From positions 34,161-98,160 of the forward strand of contig JBPOIT010000012.1 of the NCBI GenBank assembly GCA_052034235.1: 64,000 nucleotides of DNA, read 5' to 3'. The notes under the pieces were generated by a model. The model was not told where the DNA came from. It ran no database searches and saw only the letters and a list, made by a program, of their open reading frames with translations. The translations under genes were made by a program, and so were the position numbers. Origin of the DNA: Candidatus Levyibacteriota bacterium (GTDB lineage Bacteria; Patescibacteriota; Microgenomatia; Levybacterales; UBA12049). This document shows, in pieces, positions 37,316 through 59,168 of this stretch (the stretch's first letter is position 1; the number at the start of each line of letters is the position of its first letter).

Positions 37316-37979
37316 CAGGTGTTTCGTCTTTCACTAATTTTCCTTTCTCAAGTCCGATAACACGTTTTAATAAGCTGTTCACAATATCTGTATTATGTGT
37401 CGCCATAATAACTGTCGTTCCGGCTTTATTAATATCCTGAAGAAGTTTTACAATTTCCCAAGAGGTTGTATTATCCAAATTACCTGTCGGCTCATCTGCA
37501 AGCAAAATCTCAGGAGAAAAAGCGAGTGCTCTCGCAATAGCTGCACGCTGCAACTCTCCACCTGAAAGTTGTACTGGAAATTTATCACGGTGTTCTAAAA
37601 TGCCAACTTGCCCAAGGAGTTCTTCAACACGACGCTCTATCTCTTCATGGGGTGTGTTAAATACTTCAAGCGGAAAAGCGATATTTTCGTAAATAGTCCT
37701 GTCTCTAAATAATTTAAGATCCTGAAAAACAACTCCTATACTTTTTCTTAAATGCGGGACTCTTTTGTCAGGAAGATTGACTAAATCCCATTCACCGATA
37801 TGAATCGACCCATCTGTTGGTACCATATCACGAATTAAGAGACGGAAGAGTGTTGTTTTTCCAGAACCAGAAGGTCCCACAATAAAGACGAAATCGCCTC
37901 GCTCTATTGAAAAACTCACATCCTCAAGCGCGGCATTTCCTATCCCGAATTTTTTGGTTACATTTTGAAGACGAATCAT
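37269..37979 (-). CDS. ftsE: Cell division ATP-binding protein FtsE
   Basis: It carries the ABC motifs 'GPSGSGKTTL', 'LSGGELQRAAIARAL' and 'ILLADEPTGNLD'. Confidence 0.9.
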   Translation of the reverse strand: MIRLQNVTKKFGIGNAALEDVSFSIERGDFVFIVGPSGSGKTTLFRLLIRDMVPTDGSIHIGEWDLVNLPDKRVPHLRKSIGVVFQDLKLFRDRTIYENIAFPLEVFNTPHEEIERRVEELLGQVGILEHRDKFPVQLSGGELQRAAIARALAFSPEILLADEPTGNLDNTTSWEIVKLLQDINKAGTTVIMATHNTDIVNSLLKRVIGLEKGKLVKDETPVAPGAAREKKEEKAK

Positions 37980-38476
37980 AATACCTCAACTTTACCGACA
38001 TCCATTAACCACCCAGCGTGTTGCGCGGTTTGCGTAGCACCCCATACTTTGACCTTTTTCCCTACAAATTCTGACAAATCAACTGTTGATGAAGTCATGT
38101 AGACATTTTGACTTTCTCCACCTGGACGAACGAGATGATATTGGCCTTCTCCTTCAATTCCTCCTTTTTCAACAGTTCCATCAGCTGTGTCTTTAAAAGC
38201 ACTTGTATCAGTAACACCATAGGTTTTACCTTTTTCAACTGAACTCACTTTTGGAAGAGGGATTATTTGTTTACCAGAGCCTGCTGAAATCTGGCTTAAA
38301 CCAAATCCAGTGCTAACTCCCAAAACCGCAACACCCAACAAGAGTGCTATCAGCTTTGTGGGAAATGATGACGATGTTGTTGTCTCAGTAAAGCTGTGCA
38401 TAACTGGCGCATTGGCAGGACTGCTTTTCGGAGCTGAACTCGTCGCGTTACTTGTAGGGACAGGTTTATTCTCCAT
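37976..38476 (-). CDS. Hypothetical membrane-anchored secreted protein, first gene of the ftsEX operon
   Basis: A Ser/Thr/Pro-rich N-terminus precedes one TM segment. The stop overlaps the ftsE start. Confidence 0.45.
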   Translation of the reverse strand: MENKPVPTSNATSSAPKSSPANAPVMHSFTETTTSSSFPTKLIALLLGVAVLGVSTGFGLSQISAGSGKQIIPLPKVSSVEKGKTYGVTDTSAFKDTADGTVEKGGIEGEGQYHLVRPGGESQNVYMTSSTVDLSEFVGKKVKVWGATQTAQHAGWLMDVGKVEVL

Positions 38477-38606
38477 AGCACAGGTATCCTAACCTAAAGG
38501 ATAAAGGTCAAGTTTAGTAAAGCATATTTTTTGCCTTTTGGCAACTCTTGACAAGCATGGTACTATATTGTAGAGTTCTCATTGCTCAACACTTGATTAA
38601 ACTATC

Positions 38607-39260
38607 ATGTTTGGTATTCAGAAGTTAGACTTACTTATCGGCTTTTACATCACCTGTGTGCTTCTTTCCGAACTAATGGGAGCAAAAACCGTACCTCTTT
38701 TTTCGATTGGATCATTTAATGTTAACGGCACAGTGTCTCTGCTTGTACTCCCTCTTATTTACTCGATAAACGACGTCGTTGTTGAAGTCTACGGTAAAGA
38801 ACGCGCAAAAAGCTTAATCAGAACAAGCCTTGTGATGATCTTTTTTATCCTCATTTACGCACTCATTGCGACATCCTTGCCGCCAAGCACCAGGTTTAAA
38901 CCAACCGAGGCTGCATACGATACAATCTTTGGCTTATCAGCAAGGTTTGCGGCAGCAAGTCTCATTGCTTTCATCGTCAGTGAGTTTCTTGATGTGTACA
39001 TATTCTCCAAAGTTCGACAAAAACTCGGAAAAGGAAAACTATGGCTCAGAACAAACGTCTCAAATTTTGTTTCCCAATTTATAGATGTCGCGATCTTTAT
39101 GATTTTGGCATTCTATGCATTTGACCTGTCTGCTGCTGAAAACTTCAGCTTTATTGCAGGAATCGCTATCCCCTATTATCTGCTGAGATGTTTTATGTCT
39201 GTTATTGAAACACCTTTTGTTTATGTCGGCGTAAAGTGGTTAAAAAAAGAAAATAAATGA
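38607..39260 (+). CDS. COG1738/YhhQ-family transporter (7-deazapurine queuosine-precursor transporter family)
   Basis: Motifs 'LVLPLIYSINDVVVEVYGKERAKSLI' and 'ASLIAFIVSEFLDVYIFSKVRQ' align with E. coli YhhQ ('FIFLATDLTVRIFGAPLARRII', 'ASFMAYALGQILDVHVFNRLRQ'). Confidence 0.8.
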   Translation: MFGIQKLDLLIGFYITCVLLSELMGAKTVPLFSIGSFNVNGTVSLLVLPLIYSINDVVVEVYGKERAKSLIRTSLVMIFFILIYALIATSLPPSTRFKPTEAAYDTIFGLSARFAAASLIAFIVSEFLDVYIFSKVRQKLGKGKLWLRTNVSNFVSQFIDVAIFMILAFYAFDLSAAENFSFIAGIAIPYYLLRCFMSVIETPFVYVGVKWLKKENK

Positions 39261-39781
39261 AAGTAATCTTGCTTTATGTTTCCTCTATCGATGGGAAAAT
39301 AACCAAATGGGGACAAAAACGTATCCATTTATGGACATCTCCTGAAGATGCCACGTATTTCCGCAGCACTGTTGAAAAAAAGAAACTTCTTGTCATGGGC
39401 AGCAGCACCTTTGATACGGTACACCCTCAACCTGAAAAAGGTATTTTACGTCTGGTTGTCACAAGAAACCCTGAGACATATAAATCATATGCTGTGCCAG
39501 GCCAATTGGAATTTATAAATAGTACACCGACAAAACTTGTTGAAAAACTTACCAATGAAGGTTATAAAGAAATGCTTCTCGTGAGTGGAAAAACGTTATC
39601 AACTGAATTCCTCAAGAAAAAACTTGTTGATGAATTATGGCTCACAATCGAGCCAAAAATATTTGGAAACGGTGACGGAATGGTTCATGATGAAAAACTG
39701 GACATTCAATTAAAAGTAGTAACAGTGCAGAAATTGAATGCTAACGGAACACTTCTAGTAAAATATAAAATTGAACGATGA
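39257..39781 (+). CDS. RibD C-terminal domain / dihydrofolate-reductase-family NADPH reductase
   Basis: 'MKVILLYVSSIDGKITKWGQ...' and 'LLVMGSSTFDTV' fit the PF01872-like pattern. An ATGA overlap joins it to the upstream gene. Confidence 0.75.
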   Translation: MKVILLYVSSIDGKITKWGQKRIHLWTSPEDATYFRSTVEKKKLLVMGSSTFDTVHPQPEKGILRLVVTRNPETYKSYAVPGQLEFINSTPTKLVEKLTNEGYKEMLLVSGKTLSTEFLKKKLVDELWLTIEPKIFGNGDGMVHDEKLDIQLKVVTVQKLNANGTLLVKYKIER

Positions 39782-40542
39782 TTGTTACAGCTTACAAAAC
39801 ACATAAAATTCAACCCGGAGAAAAAATAGAGGCTATCCTTGATCGGTACTTACCAACACTTGAAGAAAACAGTATTGTTGCTATCGCCTCAAAAATTGTA
39901 GGAATCTGCGAAGGTCGCGTTGTGAAAATTGTTTCTGAAGACAATAAAGACGAACAAAAAACTGAACTCGCAATGACAGAGGCAGATTTTTATTTGCCCC
40001 GCGAATTTAATCAATACGGGTTTATGATCACTATTAACAGAAATGTCATGGTCGCCTCAGCAGGTATTGACGAATCAAATAGCGACGGAGCATTTTCATT
40101 ATGGCCGAAGGATCCACAACTGAGTGCAAACACTATTCACGAATACTTATGCCGTAAACATAATAAAACGCATATCGGTGTCATTCTGACTGACAGTAAA
40201 CTCACGCCGCTCAGATGGGGTGTCACTGGCATTGCGATTGCATACAGCGGCTTTTCGGCACTCAATAGTTATATTGGCAAACCAGATATTTTTGGCAGAC
40301 CAATGAAGGCAGAACAAGCAAACATTGCAGATTCTATCGCAACAGCCGCAGTTGTAGAAATGGGAGAAGGCGATGAGCAACAACCTTTAGCTGTCATCAC
40401 TGATGCAAAATTCGTCAATTTTCAAGAGAGAAACCCCACTCTAGAAGAATTACAAAGTCTTAACATCAATCTGGAAGATGACGTGTATGCATCACTCCTT
40501 ACATCAGTGGCCTGGAAAAAAGGAACAAAAACAAGAGAATAA
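39778..40542 (+). CDS. CofE-like gamma-glutamyl ligase (F420-0:gamma-glutamyl ligase family)
   Basis: 'IVAIASKIVGICEGRVV', 'ASAGIDESNSDG', 'IGVILTDSKLTPLRWGVTGIAIAYSG' and 'IADSIATAAVVEMGEGDEQQPLAVI' match the CofE pattern. An ATGA overlap joins it to the upstream gene. Confidence 0.75.
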   Translation: MIVTAYKTHKIQPGEKIEAILDRYLPTLEENSIVAIASKIVGICEGRVVKIVSEDNKDEQKTELAMTEADFYLPREFNQYGFMITINRNVMVASAGIDESNSDGAFSLWPKDPQLSANTIHEYLCRKHNKTHIGVILTDSKLTPLRWGVTGIAIAYSGFSALNSYIGKPDIFGRPMKAEQANIADSIATAAVVEMGEGDEQQPLAVITDAKFVNFQERNPTLEELQSLNINLEDDVYASLLTSVAWKKGTKTRE

Positions 40543-42139: not shown

Positions 42140-42496
42140 TTACTCCTTATCGTTCACCGATTGTAACACATGATCAGCCTGCTCTTTTATAAACTCATGC
42201 ACAAATTGAATGTCATTGGGGATTTTTTGCACACGTGAGACTGTCTCGACAACATCACCAAGGGTAATTTCCAAAGCTTGCTTTTGAATGTTTGCAATGT
42301 GCCCTAAAACGTCAGAACCTATTTTATCGGTAATCTCTTCTGCCCGATTACTACTTGCTCCAAGCACGTCAGACTGCAGATTAAACGTCGCAAAGAGATT
42401 ATTTTTTACCGGCTCAGCATAACGCGACAGCATAAAAACACTCCCAAATATAATGAGTATGAGAAAAATATTTTTCAGGACAGCAAATTTACCCAT
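42140..42496 (-). CDS. Hypothetical small protein with N-terminal TM helix
   Basis: 118 aa, located 6 nt upstream of prfB on the same strand. Confidence 0.4.
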   Translation of the reverse strand: MGKFAVLKNIFLILIIFGSVFMLSRYAEPVKNNLFATFNLQSDVLGASSNRAEEITDKIGSDVLGHIANIQKQALEITLGDVVETVSRVQKIPNDIQFVHEFIKEQADHVLQSVNDKE

Positions 42497-42562: not shown

Positions 42563-44689
42563 ATGAACTTCCATTACACGAAAGAGAAGTGCGGTGTAGT
42601 TGGAGTATGGACCATTGAAAAAGATGCTCCCTATCTAGCACGCCGCGGAATAATTTCCCTCCAACATCGCGGCCAAGAAGGCGCAGGACTCAGCGTGTTA
42701 ACCCCCCAAAAAGACATTGTTACCCATAAAGGCATGGGACTCATCCCTAACGTATTAACTGAAGAAGCAATGACTCAATTAGGATCAAGTAATTTTGCAA
42801 TTGCCCAAAATAGATACGGCACATCAGGAAGCGGCAATGTCAAAAATGCCCAGCCTATAGAGCGAAAGCATGGAGACCTACAAATGTCACTCGGACATAA
42901 CGGAAATATCCCAGATGACCTCCCACTCCTCCGCAAAAAAGCAGGCGACCACAGTAAACAAATCAGCGACACATCACTCATGGCAACACTCATTATGAAA
43001 GAACGCATGACCAGCGACAGTTGGGAAGAAGCGCTCGTTAAAGTTTTGCCAATGTTCAAAGGAGCGTTTTGCAATATCATTCTCACCAATGAACCATCTA
43101 TCTATGCAATGCGCGATCCTTTCGGCATTCGCCCATTATGTTTGGGCAAATTTGAAGACGGTTGGATAATAGCATCAGAATCTGTGTCTCTGGATTCAAC
43201 TGGAGCAGAATTTGTCAGAGATATTATGCCAGGTGAAATAATTAAAATCGATGCCAAGGGTAAGCTCACTTCATTCTTTTATGGAGAACCCAAAAAAGCG
43301 CAACATTGTATCTTCGAATACATTTATTTTGCCAGGCCTGACAGTTTCTTAAATGGAAGACGCGTTAGAGCGGGACGTGAAGAGTCGGGAAGACTGCTCG
43401 CAAAACGAATTCGCGAAAAAGGACTCAAACCAGATGTCGTTATTCCAACATTTGACTCCGGATATGCTGCTGCAAAAGGCTGTGCTGAAGAACTTGGTAT
43501 CCCAATGGTCGATGCAATCACAACAAGCCATTATGTTGGCAGAACCTTTATTCAACCGGGACAATCAAATCGCATCGCTGCGGTAAACGGCAAACACAAT
43601 ATCGTTCCTGATGAAGTGTATGGAAAAAAGATTGTAATTGTTGATGATTCAGCAGTCAGACTCACAACAAGTACACGACTTGCCAGAGGATTTCGTGAAG
43701 CAGGTGTTGCAGAAATATACATGGGCTTTGCCAGTCCTCCAGTTGTCGAACAATGTGATTTAGGGATTGATATGCGGACAAAAAAAGAGTTGCCGGCAGC
43801 CAAATTTATCAAAATGCCATTTGAAAAAATTGAAAAGAAAGTTGCAGAACACGTTGATGCAGACGCAGTCGTCTATCTTCCAATCGAAGAAACCGCTCAA
43901 GCATTTGGCGGTGTCAAAGAAGATTACTACTACTTCCCCTTCGGTGGACCTCATCCAATAAGAGGAATACAGCCAGTCTTTCCTAAAATGAAAAAGCAAC
44001 TCAGTGATAAACCAAAAATTGCAATCTTTATTTCAGGCAAAGGAACTTTTTTGCCAGATATCTTTGAATCAATTAAAAAAAGAGAAATGCATGCCGAGAT
44101 AGTAGATGTTATTTGTAATAAGCCCGATGCTCTTGGACTCGAAAAAGCTAAAAAGTATAACGCTCAAACGACCGTACTTCCCTATGTTAATAAATTTAAA
44201 GATAAAACATTACGAGAGACTTACGATAAAAACCTGATAGCACATCTTAAAAAAGTTAAACCTGATATCATACTCTTATCTGGCTGGCAAATGATTTTAA
44301 GTGAAGCATTTTTGAATGCAGCTCAAGAAATGGAAATCCCTGTTATCAATCACCACCCAGGGCTTCTGACAAGTGATACTTCAGAAGAAGTCGCAACTTC
44401 CAGAGGAAGTATTCCTGTTCTTAGAGGTGGAAGTGTTTGGAAAGATGCTTTTGAAAAGAAACTTCCTGTTTCAGGTATTACCGTGCATCAAGTCTTACCT
44501 GGTGATGGATTTGATGTCGGACCAGTTATTCTTAAAGGAGAAGTACGGATAAAAAAGGATGATACGTTTGAAAGTTGGAGAAAAAAAATGGATGAAATAG
44601 AACATCTCCTCCTGCCTGCAGCACTCAAACGGGTACTGCATGTTATGAAATCAGGAATTGATACCAGTCATGGTAAATATCCCTGGTAG
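42563..44689 (+). CDS. purF: Amidophosphoribosyltransferase fused to a C-terminal GAR formyltransferase (PurF-PurN fusion)
   Basis: The N-terminus has a 9-aa propeptide then 'CGVVGVW' (Ntn Cys) and the PRTase motif 'IVIVDDSAVRLTTS'. The C-terminal ~230 aa, from about 44009, read 'KPKIAIFISGKG', 'VINHHPGLL' and 'GITVHQVLPGDGFDVGPVI' (PurN Asn/His/Asp triad). Confidence 0.85.
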   Translation: MNFHYTKEKCGVVGVWTIEKDAPYLARRGIISLQHRGQEGAGLSVLTPQKDIVTHKGMGLIPNVLTEEAMTQLGSSNFAIAQNRYGTSGSGNVKNAQPIERKHGDLQMSLGHNGNIPDDLPLLRKKAGDHSKQISDTSLMATLIMKERMTSDSWEEALVKVLPMFKGAFCNIILTNEPSIYAMRDPFGIRPLCLGKFEDGWIIASESVSLDSTGAEFVRDIMPGEIIKIDAKGKLTSFFYGEPKKAQHCIFEYIYFARPDSFLNGRRVRAGREESGRLLAKRIREKGLKPDVVIPTFDSGYAAAKGCAEELGIPMVDAITTSHYVGRTFIQPGQSNRIAAVNGKHNIVPDEVYGKKIVIVDDSAVRLTTSTRLARGFREAGVAEIYMGFASPPVVEQCDLGIDMRTKKELPAAKFIKMPFEKIEKKVAEHVDADAVVYLPIEETAQAFGGVKEDYYYFPFGGPHPIRGIQPVFPKMKKQLSDKPKIAIFISGKGTFLPDIFESIKKREMHAEIVDVICNKPDALGLEKAKKYNAQTTVLPYVNKFKDKTLRETYDKNLIAHLKKVKPDIILLSGWQMILSEAFLNAAQEMEIPVINHHPGLLTSDTSEEVATSRGSIPVLRGGSVWKDAFEKKLPVSGITVHQVLPGDGFDVGPVILKGEVRIKKDDTFESWRKKMDEIEHLLLPAALKRVLHVMKSGIDTSHGKYPW

Positions 44690-49766: not shown

Positions 49767-50792
49767 ATGAATAATAAAAAGTATACAATCGCAACACTTG
49801 GAAGTCATTCATCTTTGCAAATATTAAAAGGCGCTAAAGATGAAGGTTTTCAAACGCTTATTATTTCAACACCTGAAACTGAAGCATTTTATAAAACATT
49901 TCCGTTTATTGATGAACATATAATTATTCCAAAATTTTCAGAATTTTCAACGATTGAAAAAACACTCATTGAAAAAAATGTGATTGTTATCCCCCATGGT
50001 TCGTTTGTTGCATACCTCGGCTCAGAAAAAAATAAAACAATGAAAGCTATGTATTTCGGAAATAAAAGTGTTCTTGATTGGGAAGAAGACAGACAAAAGC
50101 AACGAGAATGGTTAACAGAAGCAAAGATAAATGTGCCGGAGCAGTTTGACTTAAGCGATGAAAAGAAAAGACCAATTCAATATCCAATTATTGTTAAGTC
50201 ATATGGAGCAGCTGGTGGCAAAGGATATTTCTACGCCAGAGACCGAAAAGACTTCGACGCAAAAATGGAAACGTTTGGAAAGAAAAAATATGTTATTCAG
50301 GAATACATAATCGGCGTTCCACTGTATGTCCATTTCTTTTATTCACCACTTACTGACAAACTTGAAATTATGAGTATGGATAAAAGGTACGAAACAAACG
50401 TCGACTCACTTGGTAGAATTCCACTTGAAGGACAAAAAGGACTTGTTATCGAACCTTCATATGTCGTTGTTGGTAACAGTAGTCTTGTTCTCCGTGAAGG
50501 GATGCTGACAGAAGCTTACAATATGGGCAGACGAGTAATCGATGCCTCAAAAAAACTTATCGACAAACGCGGCATGTTCGGCCCATTCTGCGTGGAAACA
50601 ATCATCACACCAGACCAGCGATTCTATGTCATGGAAATTTCCTGTAGAATTGTTGCAGGAACCAATCTCTTTACCTATGGATCTCCCTATTCATGGCTCT
50701 ATTATGATGAACCAATGAGTACAGGACGAAGAATCGCCAGAGAAATAAAAAATGCTATTGCTGATAATACCCTGCCCCAAGTATTAGACTGA
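49767..50792 (+). CDS. purP: 5-formaminoimidazole-4-carboxamide ribonucleotide (FAICAR) synthetase, archaeal-type formate-dependent PurP
   Basis: 'IATLGSHSSLQILKGAKDEGF', 'HGSFVAYLG', 'YFGN', 'HFFYSPL', 'MDKRYETN' and 'MGRRVIDASKKL...MFGPFCVE' closely track the M. jannaschii PurP family (DUF1246/DUF1297). Confidence 0.85.
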   Translation: MNNKKYTIATLGSHSSLQILKGAKDEGFQTLIISTPETEAFYKTFPFIDEHIIIPKFSEFSTIEKTLIEKNVIVIPHGSFVAYLGSEKNKTMKAMYFGNKSVLDWEEDRQKQREWLTEAKINVPEQFDLSDEKKRPIQYPIIVKSYGAAGGKGYFYARDRKDFDAKMETFGKKKYVIQEYIIGVPLYVHFFYSPLTDKLEIMSMDKRYETNVDSLGRIPLEGQKGLVIEPSYVVVGNSSLVLREGMLTEAYNMGRRVIDASKKLIDKRGMFGPFCVETIITPDQRFYVMEISCRIVAGTNLFTYGSPYSWLYYDEPMSTGRRIAREIKNAIADNTLPQVLD

Positions 50793-50793
50793 C

Positions 50794-52341
50794 ATGACAA
50801 ATAGTAAAACAACACATAAAACATCATACGCACTCATCAGTGTTTTTGACAAAGCAGGAATTCTCGACTTAGCAAAAACATTTGTAGAGAAGAATATTAA
50901 AATAATTTCAACCGGTGGTACTGCTAAATACCTTAAAGAAAATAACATTGACATAATCCCCATTGAAGATATAACCAAAATGCCTGAGAGTTTTGATGGA
51001 AGAATGAAGACAATCAGTTTTGAAATCGCATCAGGAATACTCTATGACAGACACAACACGTCGCATCAAGAACAAGCAGAAAAATTACAAACTCCTCACA
51101 TCGATTATATCGTTTGCAATTTTTATGATTTCTGGAAAAAACCAGGGATTGAAATGATTGATGTCGGCGGCCCAACAATGGTTCGTGCAGCTGCAAAAAA
51201 TTATCAAAGCGTCACAGTGCTGGTAAACCCTGACGACTACAGTGTCGTTATAGAAGAAATTAAAACCAAAGGACAACCAAGTGAAGAACTTCGTAAAGTA
51301 CTCGCAGGAACAGCTTTTTCCTACGTTGCAGAATATGACGCACTGATTGCAAATTATTTTCAAAAAGACGTCGATAGTGCAGATTGGTTCATTTCACTGC
51401 GAAACGGTAAGCGCCTGCGTTACGGAGAAAATCCTCATCAACAGGGCGAATTTTTTAAAGATCTTGAAGATACAGATGCGCTCGGACTTGGCAATTATGA
51501 AATGCTCCAGGGAAAAGAAATTTCATACAGCAATTATCTCGATTTAGACGGCGGTCTTCAGGCACTTTCCTGTATCGGACAAGAAAAACCAGCATGTGTT
51601 ATCTTAAAACACACCAACCCATGCGGCGCTGCACTTGGGAAAGATTTGAAAGACGCATTTCATAAAGCATGGTTTGAAGGAGATCCACTTGCTGCATTTG
51701 GTGGCATCATTTTCTTTAACAGACCTGTTGATGGAAAACTTGCAGAATATATGTTGGCTGATCGAAAGTTTTTTGAAATCATCGCCGCACCTGAATTTAC
51801 AAAAGAAGCACGAGATTTATTTAAAATAAAACCCAATTTGCGTCTTCTAGAAAACAAAGCACTGAGTAAACCTCAATTAGAGCCATATAGAGAAATTAAA
51901 AGAGTTCGGGGAGGATTTCTTGTACAAGACACTGATGTCAAAGTTCTTGATAAAAAAGCATTAAATGTTGTGACAAAGAAAAAACCAACCTCATCACAAA
52001 TTGAAGATATGCTTTTTGCCTGGGAAATCTCACGGGTTAGTAAATCAAATTGTGTGGTTGCTGTAAAAGACGGAGTGCTTCTCGCATCGGGAGTTGGACA
52101 ACAAGATAGAAAGCGCTGTTGTGAATTATGTGTTAGTAAAGCCCTTAAACCATTAACTGGAGCTGTCGCAGCAACCGACGGCTTTTTTCCTTTCAGAGAT
52201 GGACCTGATGTCTTGATCAAAGCGGGAGTGACTGCCATAATTCAACCAGGCGGCTCAATTAGAGATCAGGAAACAATTGACGCCTGTAACGAAGCAGGAA
52301 TAACCATGATCATGACAGGTGTCAGAGCATTTAAACATTAA
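50794..52341 (+). CDS. purH: Bifunctional AICAR transformylase / IMP cyclohydrolase
   Basis: 515 aa. The MGS-like N-terminus is 'ALISVFDKAGILDLAKTFVEKNIKIISTGGTAKYL' and the AICARFT domain carries 'VVAVKDGVLLASGVGQQDR'. Confidence 0.85.
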   Translation: MTNSKTTHKTSYALISVFDKAGILDLAKTFVEKNIKIISTGGTAKYLKENNIDIIPIEDITKMPESFDGRMKTISFEIASGILYDRHNTSHQEQAEKLQTPHIDYIVCNFYDFWKKPGIEMIDVGGPTMVRAAAKNYQSVTVLVNPDDYSVVIEEIKTKGQPSEELRKVLAGTAFSYVAEYDALIANYFQKDVDSADWFISLRNGKRLRYGENPHQQGEFFKDLEDTDALGLGNYEMLQGKEISYSNYLDLDGGLQALSCIGQEKPACVILKHTNPCGAALGKDLKDAFHKAWFEGDPLAAFGGIIFFNRPVDGKLAEYMLADRKFFEIIAAPEFTKEARDLFKIKPNLRLLENKALSKPQLEPYREIKRVRGGFLVQDTDVKVLDKKALNVVTKKKPTSSQIEDMLFAWEISRVSKSNCVVAVKDGVLLASGVGQQDRKRCCELCVSKALKPLTGAVAATDGFFPFRDGPDVLIKAGVTAIIQPGGSIRDQETIDACNEAGITMIMTGVRAFKH

Positions 52342-53432
52342 TGGATACAAAGCAAATTACCATAGCAACACTCGGAAGTCATTCAGCACTTGAGGTATGT
52401 CGAGGGGCAAAGGATGAAGGATTTAAAAATGTCGTTGTCTGCCAAAAAGGTCGTGAGGCAACTTATGCCAAATATTACAAAACAAACGGCTCAACAGGTT
52501 GTGTTGATGATGTCATCCTCGTTGATTCATTTAAAGATGTCTTAAAACCGGAAATCCAAAAACAGCTCATCGACCGCAACAGTATATTTATCCCCAATAG
52601 ATCTTTTGAAGTGTATATCAATGACTACAACGCAATTGAAAATGATTTTAAAGTCAAAATGTACGGCAATAAAAAAATTCTTCGAATTGAAGAACGAGGT
52701 TTCAAACCAAACCAATATGATCTTTTAGATGCAGCACGCATTCGTTATCCAAAACAATTTTCAGATCCAAAAGACATTGATTGTGTCTGTCTTGTAAAAG
52801 TGCTTGAACAAGAAAGAGGATTTGAAAGAGCATTTTTTATCGTTGATAGTTTTGAAGATTTCAAAAAACAAACTGATGAAAAAATCAGTAAAGGTATTTT
52901 CACTGAGGAACAATTAGGTAAAGCAGTTATAGAAGAATTCATCGTTGGTGTTCAAGTTAATTTTAATTATTACTATTCCCCGATTCATGATCGTTTGGAA
53001 CTGCTTGGAACTGATACCAGACGACAAACAAATTTTGAAGGCATAACCAAACTTCCTGTTGTGTATCAGGAAGAAGTACTCAAAAAAATGTCAATCAAAT
53101 ATGAAGAAGCAAGTCATACAGCTGTGACAGTTCTTGAATCACTGCTTGAACCGGTTTTTGAAATCGGTGAACGATTTGTAAAAGCATCAAAAGAACTTTC
53201 CTCACCTGGCGTCATCGGTCCATTTGCACTGCAATCATTTATCATCCCCGGTCCTCCAAAAAAAGATATCGTCGTCATCGATGTCTCGCCTCGCTATCCA
53301 GGATCTCCAGGCATTACGGCAACACCTTACAGCGGTTATCTTTTTGGAAAGTCGGTCAATGTCGGAAAGCGCATTGCTATGGAAATCAAAGAAGCAGTAG
53401 AATTAAAGAGACTTGATGAAATAATTTCATAA
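52341..53432 (+). CDS. Second, more divergent PurP-family ATP-grasp paralogue
   Basis: The N-terminus 'ITIATLGSHSALEVCRGAKDEGF' and C-terminus 'IGPFALQSFI', 'GKRIAMEIKEA' mark the PurP family. The middle is more divergent than in the 49767 copy. Confidence 0.75.
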   Translation: MDTKQITIATLGSHSALEVCRGAKDEGFKNVVVCQKGREATYAKYYKTNGSTGCVDDVILVDSFKDVLKPEIQKQLIDRNSIFIPNRSFEVYINDYNAIENDFKVKMYGNKKILRIEERGFKPNQYDLLDAARIRYPKQFSDPKDIDCVCLVKVLEQERGFERAFFIVDSFEDFKKQTDEKISKGIFTEEQLGKAVIEEFIVGVQVNFNYYYSPIHDRLELLGTDTRRQTNFEGITKLPVVYQEEVLKKMSIKYEEASHTAVTVLESLLEPVFEIGERFVKASKELSSPGVIGPFALQSFIIPGPPKKDIVVIDVSPRYPGSPGITATPYSGYLFGKSVNVGKRIAMEIKEAVELKRLDEIIS

Positions 53433-57462: not shown

Positions 57463-58314
57463 ATGCTACTCCCCGCTTGGCTTCTTTTTGCGATTTTACA
57501 AGGTTTGACATCAAACGCATTTAATTTTTTCAGCAGGTATATCCTCAGAGGAAATGATGACGGGACTGCTTTTGCATGGCTTATGCAACTTATCCGTTTT
57601 ACCTTTTTTATTGTCTATGCAATACTTTTTGATTGGAGACTCGTTATCAGTTTTGAATCGATAGCAACCCTTCTCGTACTCGGCATTACCGAAACAATTG
57701 GCATATATTTCTATATGAAAATGCATACCCATAGCGAACTTTCAATCTCGACCATTCTCTCACGAACAAGAATGCTTTGGGTTCCGCTTTTTGCATTTTT
57801 GATAATTGGTGAGATTCTCAAACCAATTGAATATCTTGGCATTGCAATTCTTTTTATAGGAGTTTCAATAGTGAGTTCTCCGAAGAAAATGTTCGTTGAT
57901 AAAGGAGCACTCTATGCAAATGCATCATCTGTTGTTATAGCTCTTAATATTGTCATTTATAAGCTTTCAATGTCTTATGCTTCGGATCCAATAATACTTG
58001 CAGCTCTTGGTTTTCCGTCAATATTTATTCTTCCATTTTTTATGAGAAATGCGAGAAAAAGAATTGCTATAAATATCAAAGCAAGTCTGGGAATAAAACT
58101 TTTGGCAATCGGTTTTAATATTATTTCAATGTTCTTTTTTGCACTCGCCATGCAAACAGGAGAAGCAAGTAAAGTAAACGCCGTCTATCAGGGGATGCTT
58201 GTGTTCGCGGTCGTTGCAGGAATTGTATTTCTTAATGAACGAAAAGACATTCCGAAGAAAATTATCGGTACAGCGGTAACTGTTATAGGAGTTGTTTTGT
58301 TAAGCTTATATTAA
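57463..58314 (+). CDS. DMT-superfamily (EamA-like) 10-TM transporter, paralogue 1
   Basis: 283 aa and polytopic, about 40% identical to the adjacent gene ('NAFNFFSRYILRGNDDGTAFAWL' vs 'NAFNFFTRFVLKGDDDPIAYAWL'). Confidence 0.65.
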   Translation: MLLPAWLLFAILQGLTSNAFNFFSRYILRGNDDGTAFAWLMQLIRFTFFIVYAILFDWRLVISFESIATLLVLGITETIGIYFYMKMHTHSELSISTILSRTRMLWVPLFAFLIIGEILKPIEYLGIAILFIGVSIVSSPKKMFVDKGALYANASSVVIALNIVIYKLSMSYASDPIILAALGFPSIFILPFFMRNARKRIAINIKASLGIKLLAIGFNIISMFFFALAMQTGEASKVNAVYQGMLVFAVVAGIVFLNERKDIPKKIIGTAVTVIGVVLLSLY

Positions 58315-58316
58315 CT

Positions 58317-59168
58317 ATGTTTATCTTTACTTCTTGGTTCATTTTGGCGGCACTTGCAGGCTTTGCGTCAAACGCGTTTAACTTCTTTACACGTTTTGTT
58401 CTCAAGGGCGATGATGACCCAATAGCTTATGCTTGGCTATATGAAACAGTAAGATTTTTTGTTTTTGCAGTGCTCGCAATTTTTGATTATCGGCTTATTA
58501 TTACACCTCAATCAATTTTCTTTTTACTCGGTATTGGCGTTGCTGAATGGATTTCTATGTATTTTTACATGAAGATGCATTCATATACGCACTTGTCCAT
58601 TTCAACTATTGTTTCGAGGACACGGTTGATTTGGGTGGCAATTCTCGCAATTGTTATTGTTGGAGAAAGTCTCATAATGCATGAGTTTTTGGGAATTATT
58701 ATTATCTTTTTGGGACTCAGTATTGTTGTCTCACCAAAAAAACTTACCACAGATAAAGGATTAATTTATGCAAATCTTGCAGCATTTTTAATTGCCATTG
58801 ATATTATTTTTATCAAATTAGCTCTCCCCTATGCATCAAATTCAGTCATCAATGCTGCGATGTCACTTCCAGGTATGCTTTTGTTTCCTCTTTTTATGAA
58901 ACATCCTGTCAAACGAATTGCGCCCACATTAAAACGTAATTTTCGAATTAAAATGGTGGCAATTGGTTTTAATTGTCTAAGTGTGTTCCTGTTTGCACTT
59001 GCCATACGACTTGGAGACACAAGTAAAGTAACAGCAATTTATCAAAGCATGATGGTCGTATCAGTTATCACTGGTATCATTTTTCTTAACGAGCGAAAAG
59101 ACATTGGGAAAAAACTTATCGGCACTGTCGTCACACTTTTCGGTGTAGTACTCTTAACTGTACTCTAA
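58317..59168 (+). CDS. DMT-superfamily (EamA-like) transporter, paralogue 2 (tandem duplicate)
   Basis: See paralogue 1; it has the same length (283 aa) and a 2-nt intergenic gap. Confidence 0.65.
   Translation: MFIFTSWFILAALAGFASNAFNFFTRFVLKGDDDPIAYAWLYETVRFFVFAVLAIFDYRLIITPQSIFFLLGIGVAEWISMYFYMKMHSYTHLSISTIVSRTRLIWVAILAIVIVGESLIMHEFLGIIIIFLGLSIVVSPKKLTTDKGLIYANLAAFLIAIDIIFIKLALPYASNSVINAAMSLPGMLLFPLFMKHPVKRIAPTLKRNFRIKMVAIGFNCLSVFLFALAIRLGDTSKVTAIYQSMMVVSVITGIIFLNERKDIGKKLIGTVVTLFGVVLLTVL

Follow-up and report, generated by a model that had tools for sequence, protein, structure and literature searches.

Polyglutamylation is an established device by which cells retain folate (PMC1971073). 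The chlamydial protein CT611/FolC2 (COG1478), a homologue of the F420 ligase CofE, complements an Escherichia coli folC mutant (PMC1971073, PMC4161248) and is encoded within the chlamydial folate cluster folB-folKP-folA-folC2 (PMC4161248). In 2007, a comparative-genomics survey still found many folate-requiring bacteria without candidate folate carriers (PMC1971073). Here, we analyze a stretch of 64,000 nucleotides from a Candidatus Levyibacteriota bacterium (hereafter, the window), which carries three translationally coupled genes for a transporter (T), a reductase (R), and a ligase (L). We consider it probable, on homology and gene context, that T-R-L is a salvage operon for folate-type (pteroyl) compounds. 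Patescibacteria, whose genomes are tiny, are believed to rely on other cells for the majority of their cofactors. To our knowledge, the route by which they acquire folate has not been described.

The features of the locus are as follows:

38548-38576, + strand: promoter-like site (TTGACA, 17 nt, TAGAGT) within the 130-nt gap 5' of T (consensus scan, 10 of 12 matches)
38607-39260, + strand: T, membrane transporter of the YhhQ/QPTR family (PF02592), 217 amino acids (open reading frame list, Pfam)
39257-39260, + strand: ATGA overlap of the T stop codon and the R start codon (direct sequence reading)
39257-39781, + strand: R, small NADPH-type reductase of the dihydrofolate reductase (DHFR) superfamily, Thermotoga maritima DHFR-like, 174 amino acids (open reading frame list, Pfam)
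39778-39781, + strand: ATGA overlap of the R stop codon and the L start codon (direct sequence reading)
39778-40542, + strand: L, CofE-fold gamma-glutamyl ligase of the FolC2-like (folate) branch, 254 amino acids (open reading frame list, Pfam)

The original prediction for this DNA described three genes chained by ATGA overlaps, and the open reading frames lie exactly so, with both junctions legible in the sequence. Its three Pfam assignments (PF02592, PF01872, and PF01996) likewise all score above the gathering scores. The gene 3' of L is convergent and begins 2 nt past the L stop codon, while the genes 5' of T differ between loci; thus T, R, and L are one unit, and T is its first gene. The promoter-like site upstream is weak evidence for a start of transcription, since the region has 12 such sites where 7.2 are expected. 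G+C content across the window is 37-43%.

The arrangement is more than chance. T-R-L recurs, mostly with the same 4-nt overlaps, in loci of other Patescibacteria (L004, L028, L033, L075, L077, L085, and L171), where the flanking genes differ and R is just 38-48% identical. The T/R overlap is also present in L004, L033, L077, L085, and L171, and the R/L overlap is kept in L004, L028, L033, L041, and L075. A neighborhood survey across related genomes, which had been proposed as a check, thus finds the trio conserved as a unit. Our view of the genome itself is the 64-kb window, and related loci were read up to ~10 kb on each side of the seed gene; neither canonical folC nor F420-pathway genes were seen in the window or in these loci. 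The closest ligase loci are mostly labeled as Levybacteria, Roizmanbacteria, or other Patescibacteria/Microgenomates; the organism labels of several loci (e.g., “uncultured Gammaproteobacteria”) look unreliable and were not used.

We find that T-R-L occupies a chromosomal slot that, in sister genomes, holds genes for de novo folate synthesis. Upstream, this slot is flanked by FtsX-FtsE and a 166-amino-acid protein on the - strand, and downstream by PrfB and a 118-amino-acid protein, also on the - strand. Seven loci have these flanks (L001-L003, L005, L007, L016, and L017). In the four with longer folate cassettes (L001-L003 and L016), PurF-PurN and then PurD lie beyond the slot, and the flanking proteins are mostly 54-78% identical to those of the window (28-36% for the 118-amino-acid protein). 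The slot contains the complete de novo operon folP-folB-folE-pabCB-folK-L in L003 and L016; the same genes, rearranged and with pabA and pabB on the opposite strand, in L002; folP-folE-folK-L in L001; folP-L in L005, L007, and L017; and T-R-L in the window. Between the same FtsX-FtsE and PrfB-PurF-PurN flanks, L085 has T-R-L plus an extra GATase gene. L171 has T-R-L too, but with SecA upstream in place of FtsEX. Look-ups beyond the ligase and transporter surveys gave, in three cases, T-R-L or T-L beside PrfB and PurF-PurN. The ligase-PrfB-PurF-PurN synteny is kept in L001-L003, L016, L085, and L171-L173.

Within this slot, orthologues of L at 62-70% identity close the folP-folB-folE-pabCB-folK operons or come after folP. 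This context argues strongly that L serves the window's lineage as its folate glutamyl ligase. T or R was never seen with FolP in one locus, whether loci were seeded with the ligase or with T. The distribution suggests that T and R occupy the place otherwise held by folate biosynthetic genes. Because T-R-L stands where sister genomes have a de novo operon ending in the same ligase, T-R look like an alternative supply line for that ligase, one that arose after the loss of biosynthesis or in its place.

The family assignment of L agrees with its context. Pfam places L in F420_ligase (PF01996; E = 9.2e-36, residues 7-208). On the NCBIfam model TIGR04132, “putative folate metabolism gamma-glutamate ligase,” L scores 266.5 bits (residues 1-248 against model positions 1-241 of 241), below the curated cutoff of 350 bits; its orthologues within de novo folate operons fall in the same range (264-278 bits). 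The CofE model TIGR01916 gives 120.1 bits and its cutoff of 180.65 is not reached, and other CofE models give 103-115 bits against cutoffs of 274-304. By these model scores, the best family for L is that of the predicted folate-type CofE homologues, about twofold over CofE, within which L is a divergent branch. CofE structures are the sole relatives of L in the PDB (2G9I/2PHN/7ULD, E = 3e-18), that of A. fulgidus being the best match. The family is large (>2,000 relatives). JGI labels many of its patescibacterial members by the TIGR04132 name or as dihydrofolate synthase/folylpolyglutamate synthase (DHFS/FPGS), and NCBI labels some relatives “coenzyme F420-0:L-glutamate ligase.”

We classified the neighbors of the ligase at 80 loci from species-representative genomes, with Pfam searches on representatives. 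Neighbors include canonical FolA (7 loci), FolP (7), ThyA (9), GlyA (9), PurF-PurN (6), a PabC-like protein (4), Dcd (14), Tmk (14), T (8), and R (8). FolA, FolP, PabC-like, ThyA, GlyA, or R lies within 6 kb in 28 of the 80 loci. Two other recurrent neighbors have no obvious folate role. A gene for a Pro_CA_2 “putative carbonic anhydrase” (147 amino acids) precedes the ligase in 10 loci, often with dcd and tmk (e.g., L021, L050, L059, L062, and L076), and a CTP_transf_like gene (141 amino acids, cytidylyltransferase/FAD-synthetase-like) follows it in 7 (e.g., L032, L049, L051, L064, and L070).

R is predicted, from its sequence and modeled fold, to be a DHFR-type reductase of the pterin ring. 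It matches Pfam RibD_C (PF01872; 5e-18) and also DHFR_1 (PF00186; 7.8e-8, 32.6 bits against a gathering score of 25). Its best sequence match in the PDB is T. maritima DHFR (1CZ3/1D1G), with 36% identity end to end and an E value of 1.2e-26 (range 1e-26 to 8e-35), whereas the archaeal riboflavin reductase 2AZN reaches only 4e-4. An AlphaFold model built from 49 homologues has a predicted local distance difference test score (pLDDT) of 95, and its top fold match is again 1CZ3, with template modeling (TM) scores of 0.87/0.92 and a root mean square deviation of 2.1 Å. The second fold match has an E value of 3e-13, and riboflavin reductases and Rv2671 fall well behind 1CZ3. JGI names the R family dihydrofolate reductase.

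Residues of R were mapped by alignment with the E. coli and T. maritima enzymes. W26, D31, T51, G111, and T130 correspond to W22, D27, T46, G96, and T113 of E. coli DHFR and are 96-100% conserved among 128 family members, while F35, the equivalent of F31, is the majority residue (70%). These E. coli positions are the catalytic and pterin/NADPH-site residues of DHFR. R57 of E. coli DHFR (R58 in T. maritima) binds the alpha-carboxylate of the folate glutamate. The equivalent of this arginine is not conserved in the R family, which has no invariant basic residue across positions 55-66; in the HMMER alignment, the window's R has K61 there.

A riboflavin-pathway RibD fragment, which the original prediction named as an outcome that would overturn it, is not what we find in R. 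On riboflavin reductase models, R reaches 18-38 bits where the cutoffs are 150-274 (TIGR00227, 38 vs 150; TIGR01508, 31 vs 186; TIGR00326, 20 vs 156), and no rib genes were seen in the window or among the recurrent neighbors of the ligase-seeded and T-seeded loci. We rejected RibD on these scores, the nearest structure, and the context. R as a strict replacement for canonical DHFR was also considered. Here the pattern is clean in the 80 ligase loci, where R and canonical FolA never occur together; it is weakened by L116, where folA, T-R-L, and thyA are found together, so that R is probably not a strict replacement.

T carries the Vut_1 domain (PF02592; 1.8e-40, 139 bits). Over 140 amino acids, it shares 26% identity with E. 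coli YhhQ, and it scores 60.5 bits on the E. coli-type model NF008406, whose cutoff of 252 is not reached. Databases call some of the ~1,500 relatives that we found for T “queuosine precursor transporter.” For an independent neighborhood survey of the subfamily closest to the window's T, we searched metagenome contigs using aligned T sequences as the sole query. Of the 80 loci recovered (T 56-78% identical), 62 extend 450 bp or more downstream of T and were evaluable. In 54 of these 62, T has R, L, or canonical FolA as a direct neighbor, as follows:

T-R-L: 14 of 62 loci
T-R: 20 of 62 loci (10 of these contigs end before L could appear)
T-L: 15 of 62 loci
T-canonical FolA: 5 of 62 loci
T without an R, L, or FolA neighbor: 8 of 62 loci

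R follows T directly in 34 loci and canonical FolA does so in 5. Two of the T-FolA loci (L110 and L142) have full tmk-dcd-thyA-T-folA-glyA runs, and the other three are on short contigs with a partial run. Among the eight loci in the last class, one has a different RibD_C protein beside T, and in another folA and thyA lie no more than 2 kb away. Across the 80 loci, the only large neighbor clusters around T are R and L. No family of the queuosine (Q) pathway is among the recurrent neighbors, and E. coli Tgt and QueA seeds gave no match in these loci. Rfam searches of the window (gathering score), of positions 38300-38800 (E ≤ 10), and of 14 T loci returned tRNAs only and no preQ1, tetrahydrofolate, or other riboswitch; across the 64-kb window, no Rfam family, tRNA included, reached the gathering score. 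This null result provides no regulatory evidence either way on the substrate of T.

Two side observations come from these surveys. In 1.34 Mb of DNA from related loci, the Tgt and QueA seeds found tgt only at two Wildermuthbacteria ligase loci that lack T (L030, 257-1375; L070, 3423-4592). These genes encode proteins 39-40% identical to E. coli Tgt, lie ~1.2 kb upstream of the ligase, and are separated from it by an opposite-strand gene; we judge this to be lineage synteny and not a functional link. The other is a compact folate/nucleotide island at positions 1-10636 of L116, a 311-kb metagenome contig. Its order is glyA, guaA, guaB, and canonical folA (on one strand), T-R-L, Nudix, HIT, thyA, dcd, and tmk, so that T-R-L has a divergent canonical folA on one side and a convergent thyA on the other, and glyA is close by. 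The Nudix gene beside the ligase could be a candidate FolQ-like pyrophosphatase.

We propose that T, as a divergent member of the YhhQ/QPTR family, would import an external folate-type compound: folic acid or dihydrofolate, or possibly pteroate. R, of the Thermotoga-type DHFR superfamily, would then reduce the pterin ring of the imported compound with NADPH. L, with its CofE fold and FolC2 type, would add one or more gamma-linked glutamates, making the cofactor usable and trapping it in the cell. The product would supply the folate-dependent steps of the neighboring purine operon, those of the PurN domain and of PurH. Import, reduction, and glutamylation of a folate-type compound was also the logic of the original prediction, and the neighbors of the ligase, reductase, and transporter lend it support.

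Two versions of this mechanism differ in whether L would add the first glutamate or later ones. In the simplest reading, T would bring in folic acid or dihydrofolate and L would be an FPGS; the T-FolA pairs and the absence of R/FolA co-occurrence in ligase loci fit this version. Alternatively, pteroate is imported, R would reduce it to dihydropteroate, L would be a DHFS, and a housekeeping FolA would be encoded elsewhere. This version also fits the data: the de novo operons likewise contain no DHFR, the genes whose place T-R takes are precisely those supplying dihydropteroate, and R, without the glutamate-binding arginine, is able to coexist with FolA.

A broader reading, for which we see the chances as evenly balanced, joins these points. 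A QPTR/YhhQ (PF02592) subfamily would have switched from 7-deazaguanines to pteridines, becoming the missing folate/pteroate importer of Patescibacteria. R would be the dedicated reductase of the imported oxidized compound, and T-R a portable substitute for the whole de novo route leading up to L. Under this pteridine switch, R would be distinct from the housekeeping FolA and able to coexist with it; its substrate may lack a glutamate tail, feeding a CofE-like ligase in place of FolP.

Several observations weigh against a folate role for the operon. For the enzymes, L falls short of the curated TIGR04132 cutoff, ~65 of the 80 ligase loci lack both T and R, the Arg57 equivalent is not conserved in R, members of the R family are found in unrelated settings in other bacteria, and L116, and probably L127, contains canonical FolA alongside R. 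For T, the score on TIGR00697, “queuosine precursor transporter,” is 125.9 bits and passes the cutoff of 50.95, and databases name its relatives accordingly. Every characterized PF02592 member carries 7-deazaguanines, namely preQ0/preQ1 in E. coli or queuine in C. trachomatis (PMC5372724, PMC11130926). Folate goes unmentioned in papers on QPTR/YhhQ (PMC5372724, PMC11130926, PMC11570991), and we found no experiment or structure that ties any PF02592 member to folate. Furthermore, L030 and L070 show that at least some Patescibacteria have Tgt. FolE (GTP cyclohydrolase I) also catalyzes the first step of preQ0 synthesis, and it belongs to the sister-genome cassette whose place T-R takes. Its loss would remove folate and preQ0 synthesis together and create a need for Q-precursor uptake too, a possible reason for both salvage functions to be gathered in one place. 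T could, on these grounds, be an ordinary importer of preQ0, preQ1, or queuine, with R and L as folate enzymes that merely share its operon. We regard this as unlikely, given that 54 of 62 loci show T adjoining a gene for R, L, or canonical FolA, in several arrangements and even inside thyA-T-folA-glyA runs, while Q-pathway neighbors, Tgt or QueA matches, and (in the window and 14 T loci) a preQ1 riboswitch were not found. The distance of T from E. coli YhhQ and its score far below the E. coli-type model also speak against such an importer, and the 4-nt overlaps that join T to R or L point to co-expression in stoichiometric amounts. A 7-deazapurine salvage module, offered earlier as an alternative, thus gained no positive support and is kept here as this unlikely rival for T.

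It is more doubtful still that the module handles another pterin- or deazapurine-like molecule, a cofactor or metabolite not yet described, and has only its ancestry in common with folate enzymes. The missing arginine of R, its place beside canonical FolA in L116, the shortfall of L on the FolC2-type model, and the unexplained Pro_CA_2 (10 loci) and CTP_transf_like (7 loci) neighbors would all fit such a molecule. Yet at the same locus, orthologous ligases with 62-70% identity come last in full de novo folate operons, recurrent ligase neighbors are all folate or thymidylate genes, and we found nothing positive for another cofactor. Least probable by far is a conventional CofE of F420 biosynthesis paired with an F420- or flavin-pathway reductase, such as a RibD-type pyrimidine reductase. 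In its favor, Pfam assigns L to F420_ligase and R to RibD_C, NCBI names some relatives of L after F420-0, and the A. fulgidus CofE is the best solved structure for L. The model scores and the context bring this explanation close to refutation, with 103-120 bits for L on CofE models (cutoffs 181-304) against 266.5 on the folate-type model, and R below every riboflavin cutoff with a true DHFR as its nearest structure. The neighbors are folate genes, and none of cofC/D/G/H, fbiC, or rib genes is present in the window or among the recurrent neighbors of ~160 related loci, in line with the earlier remark that nothing else in the window suggests F420. For these reasons (CofE models below cutoff, a far higher folate-type score, and folate gene context), we rejected L as a CofE of the F420 pathway.

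The window also encodes candidate clients of the salvaged cofactor, and the folate-dependent PurN and PurH domains that had been noted in it are both present:

42563-44689, + strand: PurF-PurN fusion, 708 amino acids, at the head of the adjacent purine operon and outside T-R-L (Pfam GATase_6/7, Pribosyltran, and Formyl_trans_N; NCBIfam purF and PurN)
50794-52341, + strand: PurH, bifunctional and normal (Pfam)

PurN forms the C-terminal part of the fusion, and PurH is a separate protein. The PurF and PurN halves score somewhat below the NCBI equivalog cutoffs, the N-H-D motif of the PurN domain is intact as read from the translation, and the fusion is kept in L001-L003, L016, L085, and L171-L173. 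PurH is flanked by two PurP-like paralogues (49767-50792 and 52341-53432, both + strand) of the archaeal-type formate- and ATP-dependent FAICAR synthetase family (DUF1246/DUF1297), which score 379 and 289 bits against cutoffs of ~556-580. One purine step is thus served by neighboring folate-independent and folate-dependent routes, perhaps a sign that the supply of folate is uncertain.

Other genes of the window are recorded here for completeness. Two tandem EamA-family transporter genes (57463-58314 and 58317-59168, + strand) lie in the purine operon between PurC and PurM. The two small proteins that border the folate slot have no Pfam match, and their synteny is conserved across relatives. 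The 166-amino-acid protein (37976-38476, - strand) overlaps the start of FtsE and may be an FtsEX-associated factor; the 118-amino-acid protein (42140-42496, - strand) adjoins PrfB. The first 33 kb of the window comprise housekeeping genes (for RecJ, the CCA-adding enzyme, MscL, and SecDF) and an extended series of nucleotide-sugar and glycosyltransferase genes.

Two of the three parts of the operon are of kinds already known, L as a CofE-like folate ligase and R as a relative of the Thermotoga-type DHFR. The new element is the folate/pteroate specificity that gene context predicts for a QPTR subfamily now named “queuosine precursor transporter.” In the literature searched, coverage of which is incomplete, we found no description of the trio as a unit, which agrees with the original prediction, nor of a link between PF02592 and folate or of the alternation of biosynthesis and salvage at one locus. 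If the folate-salvage reading is true, a family believed to be specific for Q precursors gains a second, chemically related substrate class, and many hundreds of database entries for relatives of T and L need renaming. Sister genomes would then show a clean swap from biosynthesis to salvage at one chromosomal slot. If T carries Q precursors instead, an ordinary pair of known unconventional folate enzymes remains.

The closest known counterpart of L is the chlamydial FolC2. L has the same fold and Pfam family, its best curated model is that of the FolC2 group, and like CT611 it lies in or ends folate gene clusters; this likeness is judged through the NCBIfam model score. Both proteins belong to small-genome organisms, in which the absence of F420 is known (Chlamydia) or presumed (the organism of the window). 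L differs in that its score below the 350-bit cutoff makes it a separate, divergent branch and not an equivalog member by cutoff, and in that the predicted ligase of the window follows a transporter and a reductase, not biosynthetic genes. The earlier view that the operon is built from non-orthologous parts stands in that all three families are unconventional for the task; a CofE-like folate ligase is not itself new, since FolC2/CT611, the one such ligase shown to complement folC, was validated in 2007 (PMC1971073) and an NCBIfam model exists. With the CofE proteins of archaea and actinobacteria, the only solved relatives of L, it has a common fold, but it remains below all of their cutoffs and keeps folate rather than F420 genes as neighbors.

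R resembles T. maritima DHFR (1CZ3/1D1G) in end-to-end identity (36%), in fold (TM 0.87/0.92), and in the equivalents of the core residues. It departs from this enzyme in having lysine at the position of R58, which is not conserved in the R family, in scoring higher on RibD_C than on DHFR_1, and in coexisting with canonical FolA in at least one locus. T, in turn, has the same Pfam and TIGR family as the QPTR/YhhQ (COG1738) transporters, a similar length (217 vs 221 amino acids), and detectable homology to E. coli YhhQ. Unlike those transporters, its neighbors are DHFR-type reductases and a folate ligase, with neither Q genes nor a preQ1 riboswitch nearby.

Taken as a whole, T-R-L follows the logic of classical salvage of intact folate, in which a monoglutamate is taken up, reduced, and polyglutamylated for use and retention (PMC1971073), and for which lactobacilli and other folate auxotrophs combine an ECF FolT or FBT carrier with FolA and FolC. 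The carrier family of T has no folate link in the literature searched. T, R, and L are all drawn from families other than the classical ones, and here they are joined in one overlapping operon.

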